Made by a program: the position numbers and the translations under genes. Below the pieces are notes generated by a model, which worked only from the letters and a program-made list of their open reading frames with translations, had not been told where the DNA came from and ran no database searches. Below, piece by piece: positions 9,269 to 38,356 of a DNA stretch of 38,660 nt. This DNA comes from a virus. Within the stretch, counting starts at the first letter, position 1. Every line of letters begins with the position of its first letter. Location: the UHGV virus genome UHGV-0366580, one strand, 5' to 3'.

Positions 9269-9691
9269 ATGGCTGAAACACAGATGAGCATGTTTGGTGA
9301 CAGCGAACAGCTGCACGCGCTGATTGACCGTCTGGATGATATTCCTGATGATGAGCTGAAAAAGAACTGGCCCGGCACGCTGCGGGACCTGGTTGATGTG
9401 ATCAGTGCTGAACTGCACCGTCAGGGGATTGAACCTGCTCAGGCGGGAATGCTTGCCCGTAAGGTTGCAGCCGCACAGGCCGGGTACATGGGCGGGCGTG
9501 GTTATTATCTCCCGGTCGGTGAATCCCTTTTCACCGAACTGCGCAATAATGAAATTTTTTCCCGCTGGAGCCAGGGCGAAAAAATTGAAACCCTGCGCCG
9601 CCATTACCGGATGTCAGAAACCCAGATTTACACCGTCATACGCGAACAGCGCCGTCTGCATCTGGCAAGAACGCAACCGCCACTTTTCTGA
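9269..9691 (+). CDS. Mor/C-family transcription activator (middle or late regulator)
   Basis: 140 aa; C-terminal region resembles the Mor/C family as recalled from memory; directly precedes the lysis and structural genes. Confidence 0.7.
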   Translation: MAETQMSMFGDSEQLHALIDRLDDIPDDELKKNWPGTLRDLVDVISAELHRQGIEPAQAGMLARKVAAAQAGYMGGRGYYLPVGESLFTELRNNEIFSRWSQGEKIETLRRHYRMSETQIYTVIREQRRLHLARTQPPLF

Positions 9692-9762
9692 TATTCCGCA
9701 AAGCCTGCCGCCTTTCCTTCACCGTTACGCTGACTCAGAGAACATCATGAGACAGCGTAACA

Positions 9763-10263
9763 ATGCCAAAACTCCCCGCACCACTGCGTAAAAAGCTGAT
9801 TGCCCTTGTTCTGGCCGGTGCCGGGACGTTCACGATTGCCACGCATTACACCGGTTACTGGGAAGGGAAAGAAAACTCCACGTATATCGATCCCACCGGT
9901 ACACCCACCATCTGTTACGGCCATACCGGCCCGGATGTGAAACCGGGTATGACCCTGACGGATGAAGAATGCCTGGAACTGCTGGAAAAGGACATGAAAT
10001 GGGCCTTTGCGGCTATCGATCGTCATGTTCAGGTGCCGCTTACCCGTGGTCAGACGGTGGCGTTGGCCTCCTGGATTTTCTGGGCCGGTGAAACGAACTT
10101 TCGCAACTCCACGCTCCTGCGCCTTATCAATGCCGGGCAGATGCCCGCGTCCTGTAAGCAGTATATCCGCTGGATTTATTCAAAGGGGGTAAAACTCCCC
10201 GGTCTTGAGGCCCGCCGTTCGGCGGATGAATGGTTATGTCGTTACGATTTGCCGAAAGTCTGA
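9763..10263 (+). CDS. SAR-type endolysin (T4-lysozyme-like glycoside hydrolase)
   Basis: N-terminal weakly hydrophobic Gly/Ala-rich segment LIALVLAGAGTFTIATHY, then E...D...T catalytic pattern (YWEGKE..YIDPTGTPTICYGHTG). Confidence 0.8.
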   Translation: MPKLPAPLRKKLIALVLAGAGTFTIATHYTGYWEGKENSTYIDPTGTPTICYGHTGPDVKPGMTLTDEECLELLEKDMKWAFAAIDRHVQVPLTRGQTVALASWIFWAGETNFRNSTLLRLINAGQMPASCKQYIRWIYSKGVKLPGLEARRSADEWLCRYDLPKV

Positions 10264-17483: not shown

Positions 17484-17659
17484 TTGTTTAAGGTATGCAA
17501 ATGCATTACCTTACCCCCTTCAGGCGCGTGTCGTGATTTTCTAACCTGTATTTAACGGGCTTTAAAATCTGCGTGAAGCGCCTTTGTATTTTTCCCCTGA
17601 AAGCACTTCCTGAAATCCCGCAAAACCCGCCCTGAAAATTCCCGGCTTATGCTGCCGGA
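17484..17659 (+). promoter_or_regulatory. G-I intergenic region: candidate late promoter and/or strong gyrase site
   Basis: 176-bp non-coding gap at the genome centre; three direct CCTGAAA repeats (17596, 17609, 17631) upstream of the I start. Confidence 0.4.
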
Positions 17660-30592: not shown

Positions 30593-31140
30593 CGCTTGCA
30601 GCTCATCAGCGCGCATTGTTGCAGCTCCTACCCGATGGCCTGGCATGGGATAAACGTCCTGAATCCGTGTTGTCAGCCTTATGTCTTGGGCTAAGTCACG
30701 CCACCGAGCGTGTATCCTGGACGGCTAATCAGTTACTTTCGGAGCGCTTTCCGGAAACATCCCGGATGTTACTGGAGGACTGGGAGCGTTATCTGGGGTT
30801 GCCTGAATGTGATATGGCAGGAGCAACGTTGCAGGAGCGCCAGCGATACGCGGCGAATAAATACCGTATGAAGCCGTCACTGAACCGCGAGTTTTATATC
30901 CGGTTTGCGGCTGAATTTGGCTATGTGATTGATATTCAGCCATCACCGGAATCGCAGTGGATCAGTATTGTGACCGTAAAAAGCGAGGTTGGGTATCGTC
31001 ACATGCATGTGCTCGATCACATTCTGACGCCTCTGCGGATATATGAAGGTGGTGCGCTGGAATGCATTTTAAACCGGTATAAACCGGCCTGGCAGACGTT
31101 TTTATACATTTACGAAAAGTCGCATGAGGAGACGGAATAA
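30583..31140 (+). CDS. Mu gp48-like tail protein
   Basis: 185 aa directly upstream of the tail fibre gene. Confidence 0.65.
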   Translation: MALTLAAHQRALLQLLPDGLAWDKRPESVLSALCLGLSHATERVSWTANQLLSERFPETSRMLLEDWERYLGLPECDMAGATLQERQRYAANKYRMKPSLNREFYIRFAAEFGYVIDIQPSPESQWISIVTVKSEVGYRHMHVLDHILTPLRIYEGGALECILNRYKPAWQTFLYIYEKSHEETE

Positions 31141-32108
31141 TGTATTTCGTGGATAACAATACCGGTACGACAGAGATGCCAGCGCTGGCTCCATCGCAGG
31201 GTACTGAAGTTAAGTGGTTTACGGAAGGCGACGGTAATAAAGGTATCAGCCATATCGGGCAGGACTGGCTTAATATCATTCAGGCAGAATTGCTTGCGAT
31301 TTTGACTGAAGGAAAAATTCAACCAGATAAAATGAAGCTGAATCAGCTTACACTGGCAATCAAGGCCATTATTACGGCCAATGCTTTTTTACGTAAAAAC
31401 AACCTGAAAGAAATCGAGGATGCGGGAGCTGGTGCTCAGGCGAATGCCAGAAAAGCTCTTGGGCTGGGGACTCTGGCGACAAAAGATAAGCTTTCACCAA
31501 CAGATGTTGGTGCGCTTGAAAAAAGCAAAAATTTGTCTGACGTACCCGATAAAGTTGCGGCCCGTACCAACCTTGGGGTTTACAGTAAAGAAGAAGGTGA
31601 TCGGCGTTATCTGAAAAGCGGCGCAGATATTGGTTCATATAGTCGCGAACAAAGTGATGGGTCATATCTTAAGGTTGCGTCAAATGGTTCTGACATTGCA
31701 AACAGAAGTGCCTTTATCGATAACCTCGGTTTACGGGAAACGGTAAACAGGGCGGCGAATGCCCTGCCATCGAACGGAACGGCCGTTGCCGCGAACAGGC
31801 TGGCAAATGCCCACACAATTAATGGTGTTCCCTTTGACGGAACGCAGGATATCAACATTACCTCCGGTATGACCGAAGCTGCTGCTGATAACAAATACGT
31901 TCGCAACGTTCAGCTTGGTGCCCAGAGTTACCATTCACCCGGAGGTAATGAAATGTCCTGGAGTTATGGCGCGCCTTCCGGTTGTATGCTTTCAGGTATT
32001 AACGTGCAGGAGACCGGGAGAAATTCAGCCGATAATATCGGAGGCGTTTATTACCGTCCGGTGCAGATATATATCGGTAATGCCTGGCGCACAGTTTCAT
32101 CCGTCTGA
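31140..32108 (+). CDS. Tail fibre protein S; the 3' ~380 bp (variable part Sv) lies inside the invertible segment
   Basis: 322 aa; the gix-L site falls inside the coding sequence, so the C-terminus is exchangeable. Confidence 0.8.
   Translation: MYFVDNNTGTTEMPALAPSQGTEVKWFTEGDGNKGISHIGQDWLNIIQAELLAILTEGKIQPDKMKLNQLTLAIKAIITANAFLRKNNLKEIEDAGAGAQANARKALGLGTLATKDKLSPTDVGALEKSKNLSDVPDKVAARTNLGVYSKEEGDRRYLKSGADIGSYSREQSDGSYLKVASNGSDIANRSAFIDNLGLRETVNRAANALPSNGTAVAANRLANAHTINGVPFDGTQDINITSGMTEAAADNKYVRNVQLGAQSYHSPGGNEMSWSYGAPSGCMLSGINVQETGRNSADNIGGVYYRPVQIYIGNAWRTVSSV
31714..31739 (+). other. gix-L-like recombination site for Gin (half-sites TTATCGATAACC / GGTTTACGGGAA, core TC)
   Basis: Closely resembles the Mu gixL sequence as recalled from memory; inner 20 bp is a perfect inverted repeat of 33141-33160. 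Confidence 0.75.
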
Positions 32109-32142: not shown

Positions 32143-32685
32143 TTATTCAGGCTTCTCCGGCCATTTAATGTCGTCAAATTCAGCTTTGTTTTTAATCGCT
32201 GGTAGTTCCATTTTTTTCACCTGACTGATGTATGCCATCCATCGGGTAAGTGCGGCTCTGTCTTCATCACTGATGGTGCCCAGCTGTAATTCTGTTCTCC
32301 AGTCATTAATTTTTTCATATGCCTGATTAAGATATGACTGGCGCATTGCTTCCAGTTTTCTTGCGTAGTTAACCGGAATACGGGAGATCACGCCATTATC
32401 AAACTTCCAGTTACCCGAAATATCAGCACCTTCAGGGAGTTCGTCGACTTCAACCACAGAGAACCCCGCAGGATACAGCGCCGAAGCGTCCTGTGATATT
32501 GAGCAGATAATGCCGCTGTCAGGTGTTATACAAAGTTTATATTTTTTTGTGAATAATGGCAGGGACTCGTAGAAATCCTTACCATCTTCACTCTGAAAAT
32601 ACTGTACATCATTACCATAGAGGGTGTTTTCCGGGTAATATCGTTTAACATTAATCAGTTGCATAAACATCACCATGTGAATCAA
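32143..32685 (-). CDS. Tail fibre assembly protein (U'-like), currently antisense to the tail operon
   Basis: 180-aa minus-strand ORF inside the invertible segment, downstream of Sv' on that strand. Confidence 0.7.
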   Translation of the reverse strand: MIHMVMFMQLINVKRYYPENTLYGNDVQYFQSEDGKDFYESLPLFTKKYKLCITPDSGIICSISQDASALYPAGFSVVEVDELPEGADISGNWKFDNGVISRIPVNYARKLEAMRQSYLNQAYEKINDWRTELQLGTISDEDRAALTRWMAYISQVKKMELPAIKNKAEFDDIKWPEKPE

Positions 32686-32784: not shown

Positions 32785-33160
32785 TTAAATACTTGCAGCG
32801 GATACCCAATTCCCATTAATACAATATTGTATCTGTCTGTAATAAACACGGTCATCACCACCACGCATTTCCCAGTCTCCGTCAGTCTTAAAACCGGTAA
32901 TCACATTTCCTGATGACAGGGAGTAATTATATTCCAGTACGCCGCTTAATGCCTGCGCTCCCAGTCTTACCCCTGTAACATAACGCTGATTGGCCGTTGA
33001 TTCCGGCATTCCTGACGTAATGTTTATATCCCGCGTCCCGTCGAAAGGAACACCATTAATATTTCTTGGGGTGGCGAGTCTGTTTGCTGCCACGGCGGTT
33101 CCCCCCGATGGCAGGGCATCAGCGGCCTTATTTACCGTTTCCCGTAAACCGAGGTTTCAG
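32785..33160 (-). CDS. Alternative tail-fibre C-terminal module Sv' (no start of its own; expressed only after inversion)
   Basis: Minus-strand frame open from the gix-R core; encodes ...NRLATPRNINGVPFDGTRDINITSGMPES..., a paralogue of the S C-terminus. Confidence 0.7.
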
Positions 33161-33218: not shown

Positions 33219-33779
33219 ATGCTGATTGGCTATATACGCGTATCAACAAATGACCAGAACACAGGTTTACAAAGAAATGCGCTGGAATGTGCAGGATGTG
33301 AGCAGATTTTTGAAGACAAAATGAGTGGTAAAACGACGCAGCGGCCGGGACTGAAGCGGGCACTGAAGAAACTAAAACCCGGCGACACACTGATGGTCTG
33401 GAAACTGGACAGGCTGGGGCGCAGTATGCGCCACCTTGTTGCGCTGACAGATGAATTACAGCAACAGGGGATAAATTTTCGTAGTCTTACTGACAACATT
33501 GATACGTCAACCCCCATGGGGCGCTTCTTTTTTCACATAATGGGTGCGCTGGCAGAAATGGAGCGTGAATTGATTGTCGAACGGACACGGGCTGGTCTTG
33601 CTGCTGCCCGTGAAAGGGGACGAACCGGCGGCAGACCCCGTCGTCTCACGCAGGAACAATACGAGCAGGTCGGGCGTTTACTGGCCGGGGGTGTCAGCCG
33701 AAGACAGGTGGCACTTATTTTTGATATCGGCCTTTCAACCCTTTATCGTTATTATCCTGCGAGCGTTTCGGAAAAATAA
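33219..33779 (+). CDS. gin: Gin DNA invertase (serine recombinase, Hin/Gin/Pin/Cin family)
   Basis: 186 aa; MLIGYIRVSTNDQ catalytic-serine motif and C-terminal HTH; closely resembles Mu Gin as recalled from memory. Confidence 0.92.
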   Translation: MLIGYIRVSTNDQNTGLQRNALECAGCEQIFEDKMSGKTTQRPGLKRALKKLKPGDTLMVWKLDRLGRSMRHLVALTDELQQQGINFRSLTDNIDTSTPMGRFFFHIMGALAEMERELIVERTRAGLAAARERGRTGGRPRRLTQEQYEQVGRLLAGGVSRRQVALIFDIGLSTLYRYYPASVSEK

Positions 33780-33878
33780 GACGCTCTCTTTGTTGGGCCT
33801 TTACTGAATTAACGCAAAATGGCGTTTATCGGTCTGTGGATATGATAATTCTGTTTATTCAGGAACAGGCTGATTATT

Positions 33879-35918
33879 ATGACGTCCAAATGGGTTCAAC
33901 TATCATCAATGCCCGGAAACTTTACTGTTAAAGTTTCCGGTGGTACAGCGGCATTTCTTGAGGCTCCCTTTCCTCCGGCCGAAACAAAAGGAGGAATGAC
34001 ATTTGCTGACTGTCTCATCAGTTTTAATACACGGGATTGCCTGTGGGTAAGGCCAGTATCCGGTGATCCGAGCGTGGAAATTACCGGTGCGGGTATTGGT
34101 GCTGTCATTCCGTTAAGTGCTGATGTTGCCGGTACTGCTGAACCGTCAGACTGGGATAATGCTGAAACACATACCCGTCCGTCAGGAAATGAAACTGCTT
34201 CCAGCTCCCCTTCCTGGTATTACGTGGTGGTTCTTGCTGGTCAGTCAAACGGGATGGCCTACGGTGAAGGTCTGCCGCTGCCGGAGACATATGACCGCCC
34301 CGAACCGCGTATTATGCAGTTAGCCCGTCGCAGTACAGTCACGCCGGGAGGTAAAGCCTGTCAGTATAACGACATCATTCTGGCCGACCACTGTCTGCAT
34401 GATGTGCAGGATATGAGTGGAAAAAATCACCCGAAAGCGGATGTGGCTAAAGGGCAATATGGCACCGTGGGTCAGGGGCTTCACATTGCCAAAAAACTGC
34501 TGCCGTTTATTCCGGCAGATGCGGGGATTCTGCTGGTTCCCTGCTGCCGTGGTGGTTCTGCATTCACGGCGGGTGCTGACGGCACGTACAGTGACAGCAC
34601 GGGTGCTTCAGAGGACTCAGCCCGCTGGGGTGTGGATAAGCCGCTGTATAAGGACTTAATCAGCCGGACAAAAGCGGCACTGGCGAAGAACCCGAAAAAC
34701 CGCCTGCTTGCTGTGGTGTGGATGCAGGGCGAGTTTGATATTGATGCGAAGCCGACGGAGCATTCCGCGCTGTTTCTGGCGATGGTGGAAAAATTCCGCG
34801 CAGACCTGGCTGAACAGGCGGAACAGTGTACCGGTGGCAGTGCTGCTGGCGTTCCGTGGATTTGTGGCGATACCACGTATTTCTGGAAACAGAAAAACGA
34901 ACAGGCATACCAGGCAATCTATGACGGCTACAAAAATAAAACAGATAAAAACATTCATTTCGTCCCATTAATGACAGATGAAAATGGCGCGAATGTACCC
35001 ACCAACAATCCGACAGAAGACCCGGATATTGAATCCATTGGTTATTACGGCTCAACGTGGCGTAACAGTGCCGCCACCTGGACATCTGCGGGCCGGGCCA
35101 GCCATTTCAGTTCATGGGCACGTCGTGGGATTATTTCCGACCGTCTGGCCACGGCTGTTCTGACTCATGCAGGGCGAACCACAGTAAAAGCCGATGTTCC
35201 ATCTTCTGAAACTGAAGCACCAGTGCCGTCACCTTCAGAAACTGAAGCAGTAACCACAACACTGCTGTCTTACCGTGTCAGTGAGTCAGAAGGAAATCTG
35301 AAAGCCCAGGGCTGGGAGCCGGCTGGCGGTAAAGCTGAAATTATCAGTGATGCAGGAGGCACAGGTGGTAAGGCAATGAAACTGACCAAGGAAACAGGTA
35401 AATCATCCTGGTATCTGGATCATGATGCCGGTACTGGTGCTGAACTGCTGAAAAATGGTGGTTTAATCAGTTGTCGTTTTAAAGTACCTGGCGACCTGGT
35501 GGCAAACCAGTATGTCATGGCGCTTTACTGGCCGGTTTCCTCTCTGCCGCAGGGTGTCACCCTGACAGGGGATGCAGGGAATAATCTGCTGGCATCGTTC
35601 TACATCCAGACAGACGCAAAAGACCTGAATGTGATGCACCACAATGCAAAAGTGGCAACAAATAACCAGAAACTGGGAACCTTTGGTGTATTTGATAATG
35701 AATGGCATACGCTGGCCTTCCGTTTTGCAGGAAATAACAGCCTTCAGGTTATTCCGGTTATTGATGGTCAGGATGGTGCCGCGTTTACCCTGACGCAGTC
35801 ACCAGTAGGAACTTTCCCGGTGGACAAACTCCGCGTAACGGATATCACCAAAAATGCAACTTACCCGGTGCTGATTGACAGCATTGTGGTGGAAGTGAAA
35901 AAAGCGGTAACAGAATAA
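33879..35918 (+). CDS. Putative sialate O-acetylesterase-like protein (SGNH/SASA esterase with lectin-like C-terminal domain; NanS-p-like)
   Basis: 679 aa; GQSN motif (VVVLAGQSNGMAYGEG); Ser/Thr/Glu/Pro linker; beta-rich C-terminal ~200 aa. Lies between gin and com. Confidence 0.6.
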   Translation: MTSKWVQLSSMPGNFTVKVSGGTAAFLEAPFPPAETKGGMTFADCLISFNTRDCLWVRPVSGDPSVEITGAGIGAVIPLSADVAGTAEPSDWDNAETHTRPSGNETASSSPSWYYVVVLAGQSNGMAYGEGLPLPETYDRPEPRIMQLARRSTVTPGGKACQYNDIILADHCLHDVQDMSGKNHPKADVAKGQYGTVGQGLHIAKKLLPFIPADAGILLVPCCRGGSAFTAGADGTYSDSTGASEDSARWGVDKPLYKDLISRTKAALAKNPKNRLLAVVWMQGEFDIDAKPTEHSALFLAMVEKFRADLAEQAEQCTGGSAAGVPWICGDTTYFWKQKNEQAYQAIYDGYKNKTDKNIHFVPLMTDENGANVPTNNPTEDPDIESIGYYGSTWRNSAATWTSAGRASHFSSWARRGIISDRLATAVLTHAGRTTVKADVPSSETEAPVPSPSETEAVTTTLLSYRVSESEGNLKAQGWEPAGGKAEIISDAGGTGGKAMKLTKETGKSSWYLDHDAGTGAELLKNGGLISCRFKVPGDLVANQYVMALYWPVSSLPQGVTLTGDAGNNLLASFYIQTDAKDLNVMHHNAKVATNNQKLGTFGVFDNEWHTLAFRFAGNNSLQVIPVIDGQDGAAFTLTQSPVGTFPVDKLRVTDITKNATYPVLIDSIVVEVKKAVTE

Positions 35919-35953
35919 AAAAAATCCCGCCGGTCATGATATGGCTGGCGGGA
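35916..35953. terminator. Hairpin with upstream A8 tract (on the minus strand: hairpin followed by T8)
   Basis: TCCCGCCGG...CTGGCGGGA 9-bp stem immediately after the esterase stop. Confidence 0.45.
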
Positions 35954-36067
35954 GCTACCTAACCCATAAAGGAAAATAAAAATACTCCCGAAGGAGTAGT
36001 TACCAGTCACTTCGTCATGTTTTTACCCGATAACGAATTATGTAGTCAATATCAAAGGTAAGGTTAT

Positions 36068-36250
36068 ATGACATTCGTTCATACAATGCTGCTTTATTTC
36101 TGCGCTGTGGTCAGTGCGTTATATCTGGTGAGCGGCGGTTATAAGGTCATCAGAAATTATATTCGCCGCAAAATTGATGACGCAGCAGCCGAAAAGCTCA
36201 GTAAAACAGCACAGGCACCATCATCCCCAAACGACCCGACCCCGCTCTGA
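36068..36250 (+). CDS. Small membrane protein (one TM segment)
   Basis: 60 aa; hydrophobic LLYFCAVVSALYLVSGGY; AAGGTAAGG RBS. Confidence 0.45.
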   Translation: MTFVHTMLLYFCAVVSALYLVSGGYKVIRNYIRRKIDDAAAEKLSKTAQAPSSPNDPTPL

Positions 36251-36285
36251 TAACGGGGCAATATACCTGCAAAAGGAGAATATTC

Positions 36286-36531
36286 ATGCCAGAGATTAAA
36301 GGCACGGTTACTGAAGAGCTTGTCAAACAGGCACTTTATTCTGAAGAAGTGAACCGCGTGCTGAAGGCGCAGGTTCGCAAGGATTTTGAGGCACAAATCG
36401 ACGCATATGTTGATGAAGTGCTGGCCCGAATGGTTGGCCGTTCTCCGGCTGAAAACAGCACGGAAAATGCTCCTCAACCCGTAGAGCAACCAGAGCCGGT
36501 TCAGCCCGGAACTGACGGTACTATGATGTAA
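36286..36531 (+). CDS. Hypothetical small protein
   Basis: 81 aa; strong RBS AAAGGAGA 7 nt upstream; followed by a terminator hairpin. Confidence 0.5.
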   Translation: MPEIKGTVTEELVKQALYSEEVNRVLKAQVRKDFEAQIDAYVDEVLARMVGRSPAENSTENAPQPVEQPEPVQPGTDGTMM

Positions 36532-36540
36532 CAATACCGA

Positions 36541-36572
36541 CCGGCAGGTTTCCCTGCCGGGTGAATTTGTTA
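36541..36572 (+). terminator. Candidate intrinsic terminator (CCGGCAGG/CCTGCCGG stem, TTTC loop)
   Basis: 8-bp perfect stem followed by GTGAATTTGTT. Confidence 0.5.
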
Positions 36573-36599
36573 ATGCACGTTTTGTGTATTTTCCCTCTG

Positions 36600-37149
36600 G
36601 GGAGAACAGGCAGGGCATATCAGCATCCTGAAACAGGAAGCATTTTTTGGTTTGTATGTCTTGCCATTTTGAGATCGAGAACGGCGATAGATGAGCTGTA
36701 AGGGAGTCTTACAGGCAGGGTAAACAGGCTCTTTATCCATGATAAAGATCTCCTTTTTATGCATCTCTGCTTTACAGGAGACCGGGGAATATCATAGGAT
36801 ACGCCACGAGCTCGAAGTAAAGCATTGATGCAAAATTGTCTAAATCGGCCCAGAATAGTTCGCGCTATCTGGGTCGCCCTTTATGTATGTAGTATCCCAT
36901 TGATTTGAAACATACTACATATACGCACAATCCTACCTTCACTGTATAAAAAGTCAATAAAATGATCATTTTATGATCGTTTTCACCACCTAACTCTTCG
37001 TTTTCTTTAAGTAAGTAATCACCGCCCTGAATCATTGTTGATGACTTTTCAATCTATTTGTTGTATCAATTAAACAAACCGAATCGATCGTTTTTGTCGA
37101 TCGATTGCATGAGAAAGGCATCAACAACAAAGCAGGAGGTTATGCGGCC
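36600..37149 (+). promoter_or_regulatory. AT-rich non-coding region upstream of com with GATC clusters and inverted repeats (candidate mom-type late promoter)
   Basis: GATC at ~36673, 36748, 36964, 36976, 37086, 37098; AATCGATCG-N7-CGATCGATT inverted repeat at 37082-37106. Confidence 0.45.
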
Positions 37150-37335
37150 ATGTATCGAAACATACGGTGCCGACACTGCAATAAGCTACTGGCACGGGCC
37201 AGTTTCAGTTATCTGGAAGTAAAATGTCCGCGCTGCAAAACCCTCAATCAAATCACATCTCAGAGCGCCACAGAGCACCCCACATACACAAGGAAATCCT
37301 GCCGTGGGGAACAAGAAACATTACTTTCAGTCTGA
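37150..37335 (+). CDS. com: Com-like zinc-finger translational activator
   Basis: ATG 37150 with AGGAGG RBS (TTG at 37105 is the upstream alternative); RCRHCNKLL...KCPRCK motif; 3' end overlaps the next gene by 32 nt. Confidence 0.75.
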   Translation: MYRNIRCRHCNKLLARASFSYLEVKCPRCKTLNQITSQSATEHPTYTRKSCRGEQETLLSV

Positions 37336-38356
37336 TAAGTCACTAACCTATGGTTCAGTATGCAGTGGTATTGAAGCTGCGACAGTAGCCTGGAGCAATC
37401 TTGGCTGGAAAGCCAGATGGTTCAGTGAAATAGAGGACTTCCCGTCAACACTTCTTTCATATCGCTGGCCCCATATACCAAATCTTGGTGATATGGCTTT
37501 GCTTGCGCCTCGTATCAGGGATGGGCTTATTGAAGCACCAGATATTCTTGTAGGTGGAACTCCGTGTCAGGCATTCAGTATGTCAGGCAAACGAAAAGGC
37601 CTTTCAGATCCACGGGGGCAGTTAACACTGTCTTTTGTTGAACTGGCGAATCAGATAGATACCGTTCGGGCATCGCTCAATAAATCCCCCTCAATAATCG
37701 TATGGGAAAACGTCACAGGAGTTTTAAGTAGCCATGACAATGCATTCGGTCATTTTCTTGGTGCGCTGGCCGGAGCAGGTTGCGCATTACAGCCAGCAAG
37801 GAAAAGATGGGCAAACGCTGGTGTTGTGTCTGGACCATCGCGTATCGTCGCCTGGCGAGTACTTGATGCCCAATATTTCGGAGTCGCCCAGGCTCGCAGA
37901 AGAGTGTTTGTTGTGGCAAGTGCTGGAAAAAGGCTCGATCCCGGAAAGGTATTATTTGAGTTCCCGCCTGTGTCGCAGGGCGATAAAAACTATTACGGAA
38001 AGAAGAAAAAATCCGAATCCCTTCTTGATCAAGGCATTGAAGGAAAATTGCACCGATATTGCCTTGAAGCATTGCCAAAACGAACAGGCACAGTAATAGC
38101 TGGCTATAACGGAACAACTAACCAGGACATGACTATGTCTGGTGGGCTCATAGTTGAAAGAGCGCCATATTCAAGGGTTCGTAGGTTGACGCCAACCGAA
38201 TGCGAGAGGCTACAAGGTTTTCCCGATGGATATACAGATATTCCATGGAAAAATTCATCTCCAGCTCATCGTTATAAGGCCATTGGAAATTCAATGCCTG
38301 TACCGGTCATGAAATGGATTGGTCGAAGAATACAGGAAGCGTTAAACGAAGTTTAA
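37304..38356 (+). CDS. C5-cytosine DNA methyltransferase (Dcm-like), in the position Mu uses for mom
   Basis: 350 aa; motifs GGTPCQAFSMSG (PCQ), ENV (IVWENVTG), QARRR, ERLQGFPDGYT, AIGNSMPVPV; GTG start inside the com 3' end. Confidence 0.85.
   Translation: MGNKKHYFQSDKSLTYGSVCSGIEAATVAWSNLGWKARWFSEIEDFPSTLLSYRWPHIPNLGDMALLAPRIRDGLIEAPDILVGGTPCQAFSMSGKRKGLSDPRGQLTLSFVELANQIDTVRASLNKSPSIIVWENVTGVLSSHDNAFGHFLGALAGAGCALQPARKRWANAGVVSGPSRIVAWRVLDAQYFGVAQARRRVFVVASAGKRLDPGKVLFEFPPVSQGDKNYYGKKKKSESLLDQGIEGKLHRYCLEALPKRTGTVIAGYNGTTNQDMTMSGGLIVERAPYSRVRRLTPTECERLQGFPDGYTDIPWKNSSPAHRYKAIGNSMPVPVMKWIGRRIQEALNEV

Follow-up and report, generated by a model that had tools for sequence, protein, structure and literature searches.

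A predicted NanS-p-type sialate O-acetylesterase module between gin and com in Sp18-type Mu-like prophages of Escherichia coli

We analyzed the region between the DNA invertase gene gin and the gene com in the virus genome UHGV-0366580, a 38.66-kb stretch of DNA (38,660 nucleotides; hereafter, the window) that constitutes a complete Mu-type transposable prophage of the Sp18 type from Escherichia coli. In our judgment, this region is quite likely to be a NanS-p-family sialate O-acetylesterase module, made up of a large esterase gene and two small genes (DUF1378 and DUF826), and a standing accessory component of Sp18-type Mu-like prophages. What the sequences show are the domain identities, the retention of residues for catalysis and sugar binding, the gene order, the distribution of the module, its purifying selection and its mosaic structure; the substrate, the timing of expression, the route of release and any role of the N-terminal domain or of the two small proteins are inferred. 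An earlier reading of this DNA, made from the letters alone (the sequence-only reading), had described about 3.3 kb of extra DNA between gin and com with three open reading frames (ORFs). This observation is real, and all three ORFs were found where it had placed them.

The esterase and its predicted activity

The largest gene of the region (33879-35918, plus strand) encodes a protein of 679 amino acids, which RefSeq names ‘DUF6645 domain-containing protein’. Residues 113-430 (34215..35168, plus strand) correspond to a NanS-type SGNH/SASA catalytic domain. Residues 104-428 matched NanS of E. coli (PDB 3pt5) with an E-value of 9.5e-119, and the Pfam family SASA, for which the sequence-only reading had proposed a profile search, was found at residues 116-312 (E=5.5e-12). 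Using published block definitions (GQSN ... R(A/S)SH; PMC10462455), we located SGNH block I as GQSN at residues 121-124, which includes Ser123, and block IV as RASH at residues 406-409, which includes His409. Residues 459-679 together with the stop codon (35253..35918, plus strand) correspond to a lectin-like jelly-roll domain, DUF6645: residues 459-674 matched the C-terminal domain of phi24B NanS-p (PDB 6yp6) with an E-value of 4.3e-111, and residues 524-642 matched Pfam DUF6645 (E=2e-68). A sugar site formed by four aromatic residues has been proposed for this lectin-like domain (PMC10462455), and all four are kept, with Y544, Y549, Y574 and F645 aligned to Y510, Y515, Y540 and F611. On these matches, the protein is predicted to be a NanS-p-type esterase with a lectin-like C-terminus. 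The sequence-only reading had called it NanS-p-like on the basis of a GQSN esterase motif and a lectin-like C-terminus, and the matches to 3pt5, 6yp6, SASA and DUF6645 bear this out.

The catalytic and lectin-like domains are joined by a linker rich in Pro, Ser, Glu and Thr (residues 431-458; 35169..35252, plus strand), the length and sequence of which are highly variable among alleles. Within it lies a 20-nt near-duplication (35200-35219 and 35230-35249; 90% identical, 30 nt apart) that encodes a repeated SETEA motif.

We also compared the protein with known members of the family. It showed 80% identity to the NanS-p of the lambdoid phage 1720a-02 over residues 100-676. In an alignment of 612 columns with ST933Wp42 of 933W, the identity was 73%; experiments have established that the product of the ST933Wp42 gene, z1466, is a Neu5,9Ac2 esterase (reviewed in PMC8065619). 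Relative to lambdoid NanS-p (933W z1466/ST933Wp42; phi24B vb_24B_21/gp84), the catalytic and lectin-like domains are 78-83% identical (81-82% for the catalytic domain), and the catalytic blocks and sugar-site aromatics are kept. In other words, the protein has the SASA/SGNH domain with its blocks and the DUF6645 domain with its aromatics, and it is encoded by a prophage, as in other NanS-p proteins. However, it has neither a DUF1737 N-terminus nor the lambdoid location. Lambdoid nanS-p genes belong to a late operon antiterminated by Q, in which they follow Q/stx and precede the lysis genes, the holin gene S among them, whereas the present gene lies between gin and com in a Mu-like myovirus. 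The catalytic domain is likewise homologous to chromosomal NanS (YjhS, 3pt5), and the GQSN and (R)xSH blocks are common to both. However, the solved NanS chain (3pt5) has 337 residues and aligns to residues 104-428 only, beyond which the prophage esterase has an N-terminal domain, two linkers and the lectin-like domain. A signal peptide is also lacking from the prophage protein.

We propose that the most likely reaction of the enzyme is the 9-O-deacetylation of sialic acids (Neu5,9Ac2) carried by mucin-type glycans, and that catalysis would proceed by the SGNH machinery of NanS, through Ser123 in GQSN and His409 in RASH. The C-terminal lectin-like jelly-roll domain would hold the enzyme on the glycan and thereby raise its local concentration on the substrate. 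Because the N-terminus of the 679-residue protein shows no hydrophobic signal-like segment, the enzyme would leave the cell by lysis or on particles, and it may act either after phage-induced lysis or while bound to released particles. The outcome could be sialic acid that surviving kin can use, or easier passage through mucus.

We also considered the possibility that the enzyme deacetylates a glycan of the bacterial surface, such as the O-antigen or O-acetylated polysialic or other capsules, and so exposes a receptor or alters the surface of the lysogen. This corresponds to the receptor-modifying role suggested by the sequence-only reading, and a review has raised the possibility for NanS-p (PMC8065619). 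It would fit with the position of the gene next to the host-range module with its invertible tail fibre, and with the occurrence of SGNH esterase domains in phage tail proteins, as seen in weak PHROG matches. However, the catalytic domain is close to that of lambdoid NanS-p, as given above, and the prophage enzymes of EDL933 and O104:H4 strains are active on Neu5,9Ac2 and mucin glycans (PMC8065619). In addition, the match to chromosomal NanS is very strong (3pt5, E=1e-118 when rounded, residues 104-428), there is no signal peptide with which the enzyme could reach the lysogen's own surface, and we found no experimental NanS-p activity on lipopolysaccharide or capsule in the same review. We regard a surface-glycan substrate as improbable.

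As for expression, the module would be transcribed from upstream, either by read-through from gin or as part of the late tail transcript. A 22-nt element, CTGAWATYCCGCAAARCCYGCC, occurs in exactly two copies in the window (9688-9709 and 17610-17631), none being expected by chance; one is located 5' of the lysozyme gene (lys) and the other 5' of the protease/scaffold gene I. This element is probably the late-promoter or C-activator site of the lineage. The C-protein site of Mu (TTAT-N6-ATAA), which is present at the Mu mom promoter, was also considered as a promoter guide and rejected: the window contains no exact copy of it, and matches with one mismatch were near chance level.

Several points weigh against the esterase-module reading. 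The scan found no convincing sigma-70 promoter in the 99-bp spacer between gin and the esterase gene, and the 22-nt element is absent upstream of the esterase gene, the DUF1378 gene and com. The proposed substrate specificity is extrapolated from sequence identity of 73-82%, and for neither DUF1378 nor DUF826 has a role been assigned in any phage. The searchable literature yielded no report of NanS-p homologues from Mu-like phages, and nothing on the Sakai locus tags ECs_4993, ECs_4994 and ECs_4996.

The segment between gin and com across prophages

The left flank of the segment is a gin-type DNA invertase gene (33219..33779, plus strand; Pfam Resolvase 1.4e-51 and HTH_7; PHROG ‘DNA invertase’) that is 71% identical to Mu gin at the nucleotide level, and the right flank is com (37150..37335, plus strand; Pfam Zn_ribbon_Com 1e-12; RefSeq annotation). 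The gap between the gin stop (33779) and the com start (37150) is 3.37 kb, compared with 94 bp in Mu and 58 bp in the A21 Mu-like prophage of E. coli; relative to Mu, the segment is indeed additional, as the sequence-only reading had stated. Nucleotide homology to Mu gin ends at 33746, eleven codons ahead of the window gin stop, and a relic at ~37064-37107 (‘atcaattaaa’ and a GATC cluster) resembles the gin 3' end and the mom regulatory region of Mu and A21. Therefore, the extra segment, which has no counterpart in Mu or the A21 prophage, spans ~33747..37063 and replaces the Mu-type gin 3' tail. The sequence-only reading had placed its limits at 33780 and 36600; the segment it recognized exists, and its right limit lies past 36600. 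The large protein and two small ORFs that it had listed are also present, but it had overlooked a fourth gene, on the minus strand (36570..37035), which is a frameshifted homologue of Sakai ECs_4996 and is marked ‘frameshifted’ by RefSeq in an identical prophage. Insertion mediated by an insertion sequence or a transposon was considered as well, and neither flanking direct repeats nor a transposase was found around the segment.

The first of the two small genes (36068..36250, plus strand) encodes a 60-residue DUF1378 protein (Pfam 1.2e-38, 131.5 bits with a cut-off of 25; PHROG 494), a membrane protein whose N-terminal segment is hydrophobic and whose tail is basic and charged. The second (36286..36531, plus strand) encodes an 81-residue DUF826 protein (Pfam 3.2e-15, 56.5 bits with a cut-off of 25; PHROG 311). 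The sequence-only reading had described both as ORFs of unknown function. They do belong to named families, the function of which is itself unknown: both PHROGs are labelled as such, and NCBIfam holds no model for DUF1378 or DUF826. As in some lambdoid phages, the esterase gene is thus followed by DUF1378 and DUF826 genes. In 1720a-02, the order is nanS-p, a 60-residue gene, an 81-residue gene (‘ORF C81-like’) and holin S, with the products of the two small genes being 54% and 45% identical to DUF1378 and DUF826 of the window, and according to a 2023 survey some Stx2a phages also have DUF826 and DUF1378 genes in the interval from nanS-p to S. Other lambdoid phages, 933W and 1717 among them, have a different gene at this place. 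Both small genes are kept beside the esterase gene in the two deeply diverged Mu-like alleles of E. coli. Because they have been retained there under purifying selection and without adjoining lysis genes, their products would work in connection with the esterase and not with lysis.

All three plus-strand ORFs (679, 60 and 81 residues) are intact. We calculated the ratio of nonsynonymous to synonymous substitution rates (dN/dS) between the two diverged Mu-like alleles, for which synonymous sites are near saturation, and obtained values of 0.16 for the esterase, 0.30 for the DUF1378 gene and 0.12 for the DUF826 gene. Taken with the Pfam matches, these values argue that none of the three ORFs arose by chance.

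To describe the distribution of the module, we surveyed 5426 complete E. coli genomes. The 5' region of the window-type esterase gene (the unique N-terminal domain and the upstream spacer) was found in 205 genomes, at 246 places. A second allele, the M18 type, which shows 65% protein identity to the window allele (~57% in the N-terminal domain), was found in 28 genomes, at 39 places. The major head gene of the lineage occurred in 233 genomes (273 places), to be compared with ~285 copies of the module, which is thereby present in about 4% of complete E. coli genomes. Every inspected context showed the order tail fibre/Tfa, gin (sometimes missing), esterase, DUF1378, DUF826, a variable small gene and com, followed by mom or a methyltransferase gene. 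Similarly, all 35 IMG/VR loci with the N-terminal domain had Mu-like neighbours, and the gene order was the same wherever the contig was long enough. The diverged Mu-like prophages L009 and L051 of Salmonella also carry an esterase module. Mu lacks it, and so does the A21 prophage, which has a right end like that of Mu itself. With ~285 copies at the same site, and with relatives in Salmonella, the module is thus to be read from these sequences as nearly fixed in Sp18-type prophages, that is, as a lineage-wide accessory module rather than a recent cargo insertion. The sequence-only reading had proposed a cargo insertion and had noted that carriage of the same genes as a conserved core by related Mu-like phages would speak against it; within the lineage, this is largely what we found.

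We also considered whether the module hitch-hikes passively on the Mu-like phage or is in decay, a single illegitimate recombination event having brought in part of a lambdoid late region that has no function in its new context. The frameshift in the neighbouring minus-strand gene of the window would agree with such an origin, as would the failure to find a dedicated promoter (by the sigma-70 scan or the 22-nt element) and the fact that the small genes adjoin lysis genes in lambdoid phages, a context that is missing here. However, the three ORFs have remained intact across synonymously saturated alleles with dN/dS values of 0.12-0.30, the catalytic and sugar-binding residues are intact, and the module has been kept in ~285 prophage copies and in the diverged Salmonella relatives. 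With such evidence, we give the hitch-hiker explanation very little credence, and the esterase-module reading is retained.

The genes of this module are not new to databases. The best-known member of the lineage is Sp18 of O157:H7 Sakai, and its genes ECs_4993-4995 have been in GenBank as ‘hypothetical proteins’ since the Sakai genome. Surveys of NanS-p have considered lambdoid prophages (PMC8065619; the 2023 survey). The NanS-p family, its structures and its activity are already known; what appears to be new, and of moderate interest, is the Mu-like variant and its fixed place in the lineage. Mu-like NanS-p represents an additional, overlooked family of copies, including that in Sp18 of Sakai.

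We also observed mosaicism among alleles. The catalytic domain of the window esterase is 81-82% identical to lambdoid NanS-p, compared with 70% to the M18-type Mu-like allele, and the lectin-like domain shows 78-83% compared with 73%. The N-terminal domain, which is unrelated to DUF1737, is common to the Mu-like alleles only (57% identity). A third esterase allele is found in the IMG/VR loci L025-L028 (e.g., L025:10001-12600). Its N-terminal domain and DUF826 are each 95-98% identical to those of the window, compared with 67% for the catalytic domain, 38-44% for the lectin-like domain and 58% for DUF1378. Therefore, one breakpoint lies where the N-terminal domain meets the catalytic domain, and another separates DUF1378 from DUF826. 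The central part of the module has presumably been exchanged with the multiple nanS-p copies of co-resident lambdoid prophages, and among the alleles compared the N-terminal domain is seen to stay with the Mu-like backbone. Such retention is mechanically expected, because lambdoid alleles lack homology upstream of the catalytic domain, and by itself it does not prove selection for the domain. Recombination between Mu-like and lambdoid alleles also shows that genes pass between kinds of phage with little else in common.

The N-terminal domain and the question of virion display

Residues 1-78 of the esterase (33879..34112, plus strand) are predicted to form a small, all-beta, cupin-like domain in the place of DUF1737, and residues 79-112 (34113..34214, plus strand) form a linker rich in Ala, Ser, Thr and Pro. 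In an AlphaFold model calculated from an alignment of 12 sequences, residues 1-78 had a predicted local distance difference test (pLDDT) score of ~90 and contained six beta-strands, and they were followed by a disordered linker, modelled with low confidence (pLDDT <50 from residue 82), that ends in ASSSPS directly ahead of the catalytic domain. The sequence-only reading had suggested a check for DUF1737, and this domain is absent: residues 1-112 matched no Pfam family, even at E<=1, their identity to the DUF1737 region of lambdoid NanS-p (1717, 1720a-02) was 17-19%, which is noise, and the predicted fold differs from that of DUF1737, which consists of one helix and three strands (preprint 10.64898/2026.04.10.717836). 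We rejected DUF1737 as the identity of this N-terminus on these grounds. According to the model, residues 1-78 are a confidently predicted small beta-barrel unrelated to DUF1737, and fold matches were to generic cupins, with no known decoration or adaptor protein among them.

Exhaustive sequence searches found the N-terminal domain in three settings only, all in prophages of E. coli and Salmonella. The first is the esterase of Mu-like prophages of E. coli. The second comprises Salmonella esterases, in which the N-terminal domain shows 18-36% identity (37% in L051): L009 is a Mu-like prophage with the esterase gene downstream of gin, L051 is a second, more diverged Mu-like prophage, and L013 is a lambda-like prophage in which the esterase gene comes right after the side tail fibre and DUF4376 chaperone genes. 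As in the window, these three prophages fuse the N-terminal domain to a SASA esterase and place the gene after the tail-fibre genes; L051 differs in having DUF1353 in place of DUF1378 and DUF826. The third setting is a stand-alone gene of 81 residues for the N-terminal domain, found in the lambda-like Salmonella prophages L010 (8001-9274), L011 and L012. There, the gene overlaps the start of a gene for a 343-residue DUF6645 protein without an esterase domain; the pair lies right after the side tail fibre and DUF4376 chaperone genes, and a Pertussis_S1 (ArtA-like toxin) gene is located a few kb away.

Residues W5, G21, P33, W56 and R58 are kept across the N-terminal domain family, and the proportion of nonsynonymous differences (pN) in the domain is 0.235 compared with 0.77 for synonymous differences (pS), which indicates that the domain is under constraint. 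Its distribution is narrow. By tblastn against phages, it was found only in two Mu-like inserts and in no other record of the phage collection; a phmmer search with the domain over 1.84 billion protein representatives gave 5 matches, one of which (P0005) is a low-complexity repeat protein that we regard as spurious. A word-indexed protein search with the domain returned fragments only, the sole match of a PDB profile search resulted from the start of SASA being included in the alignment, and two scans of GTDB species-representative genomes yielded no relative. A profile search of all retrieved loci found no second copy of the domain elsewhere in the phage, and the searchable literature contained no description of this alternative N-terminal domain. 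Of the database proteins with the domain (P0001-P0021), most are partial and lie at the end of a contig. Short-read assemblies probably break at the catalytic domain because it is present in several copies, leading to under-counting of the gene family in draft genomes.

It has been reported in a 2026 preprint (10.64898/2026.04.10.717836) that gp84, the NanS-p of phi24B, is a structural protein, in which the DUF1737 hexamer binds the central capsid hexons and from which the esterase and lectin portions are lost by cleavage over time. This introduces the question of whether the Mu-like esterase is likewise displayed on the virion, with the N-terminal beta-barrel anchoring the esterase and lectin-like domains to the capsid or to the tail-fibre/baseplate region. 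In that case, the enzyme would serve the phage, in adherence to or penetration of mucus or in access to a receptor, rather than mainly the lysogen. This explanation partly overlaps with the esterase-module reading, and we regard both the anchoring and this role as possible but doubtful.

Several observations are compatible with display. The swap affects exactly the domain that, as DUF1737, anchors phi24B NanS-p to capsid hexons, and leaves the remainder 80% identical; the resulting architecture is a small folded domain with a disordered linker, and the motif of the SSP type at the end of this linker (ASSSPS) recalls the SISSP motif described in the preprint. The N-terminal domain also exists as the stand-alone 81-residue gene, and most DUF1737 proteins are likewise single-domain. 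Furthermore, the esterase gene always lies directly 3' of tail-fibre and assembly genes, with or without gin, and this adjacency holds both in Mu-like prophages and in lambda-like prophages of Salmonella. The catalytic region also has weak matches to ‘tail protein’ families of PHROG. However, the fold of the domain resembles generic cupins and shows no likeness to decoration or adaptor proteins that are known, morons too are classically found after the tail-fibre genes, and retention of the N-terminal domain would be expected anyway, given that lambdoid alleles have no upstream homology.

A broader and still more tentative proposal is that virions of very different kinds display one esterase-lectin ‘mucus tool’ by means of N-terminal adaptors specific to phage type. 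The adaptor would be DUF1737 on phi24B-type capsids and the ~78-residue beta-barrel, with a probable site close to the tail fibres, on the particles of Mu-like and of some Salmonella lambda-like phages; the catalytic-lectin cassette would be freely exchanged between co-resident prophages by recombination, and DUF1378 and DUF826 would be co-factors of this system instead of lysis. Because only the N-terminal domain differs, which is the capsid anchor in lambdoid enzymes, the Mu-like variant is a natural domain-swap experiment, one that could tell virion-displayed tools from released public goods.

Neighbouring features and the prophage backbone

Two hairpins are present around the small genes. 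The first, with a stem of 13 bp, begins 7 nt past the esterase stop (35925..35953, plus strand; -23.2 kcal/mol, z -4.9); on the minus strand, the same sequence gives -14.7 kcal/mol and z -1.0. It has no U tract on the plus strand, and the run of eight A residues ahead of it corresponds to U8 on the minus strand. The second is a GC-rich 8-bp hairpin between the DUF826 gene and the convergent pseudogene (36541..36560; -19.8 kcal/mol, z -3.15). The sequence-only reading had assigned the 81-residue ORF its own terminator. The hairpin is real and terminator-like, but its T tract is too weak for the terminator scan, which did not list it.

The slot between DUF826 and com is variable. In Sakai, the intact ECs_4996 encodes 154 residues with a C-terminal CPAC...CPAC zinc ribbon, and this gene, the homologue of the minus-strand pseudogene of the window, had no Pfam family match. 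In M18, the slot is taken by the gene for an unrelated 175-residue zinc-ribbon protein that also has a hydrophobic segment, whereas an additional gene of 66 residues is present there in FORC_043 and STEC299.

The sequence-only reading had noted that com-mom closely follows gin in Mu. Here, com is present, but mom is absent from the window, and the ORF after com encodes a C5 DNA cytosine methyltransferase instead (37304..38356, plus strand; Pfam DNA_methylase PF00145 1.6e-42). The 350-residue enzyme is in frame after the first three mom codons (GTG GGG AAC), with the junction at 37304-37318: identity between the window and mom-carrying prophages extends across com and as far as mom codon 3, where it stops. 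The gene reaches to ~100 bp from the right end of the prophage, and the right boundary of the replacement is at ~38418. This variant occurs in 10 of the 5426 complete E. coli genomes, always downstream of com. The same pair of com and a 350-residue methylase, 68% identical and also starting with MGN, is found in the Salmonella-type Mu-like prophage L051 (13622-14831), and the closest methylase from a cultured phage is that of Pectobacterium phage ZF40 (64%). Judging from the kept mom start codons and the L051 pair, DNA-modification enzymes appear to be interchangeable behind the Com-responsive translation-initiation region, and the C5 methyltransferase appears to be under Com control, its Com-dependent translation-initiation region having been kept. 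Replacement of mom by adenine methyltransferases has been described for Mu-like prophages of Haemophilus and Neisseria (PMC3299994).

The backbone of the window is that of a Mu-like transposable phage. Pfam identified MuA, MuB, gpT (the major head protein), the sheath of the tail and a Mor/C-family activator immediately 5' of the lysozyme gene (9763-10263); as this position indicates, no lysis genes adjoin the esterase module. Baseplate genes, an invertible tail-fibre segment, the gin-type invertase gene and com are also present, and the right end of the prophage is at ~38520, with host DNA beyond. The region studied is 97-100% identical to prophages that occupy different host genes in different E. 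coli strains, as expected for an Sp18-type transposable phage, and the window also matches ‘inserted Mu-like phage’ segments within two Shiga toxin (Stx) phage records. Random insertion into host genes is shared with Mu, as are the features of the Mu right end, namely gin, the invertible tail-fibre segment, com with a GATC-rich upstream region and the right end itself. Unlike Mu, which has 94 bp and no esterase between gin and com, the window has 3.3 kb with an esterase gene at this site, and it carries a C5 methyltransferase gene in place of mom.

The invertible tail-fibre segment is flanked by inverted repeats of 156 bp (31722-31877 and 33001-33156; 83% complementary). In the present orientation, the sole tail-fibre assembly gene (32143-32685) and a 102-residue fibre C-terminal fragment (32785-33093) are on the minus strand, and the expressed fibre gene (31140-32108) has no chaperone gene downstream on the same strand.

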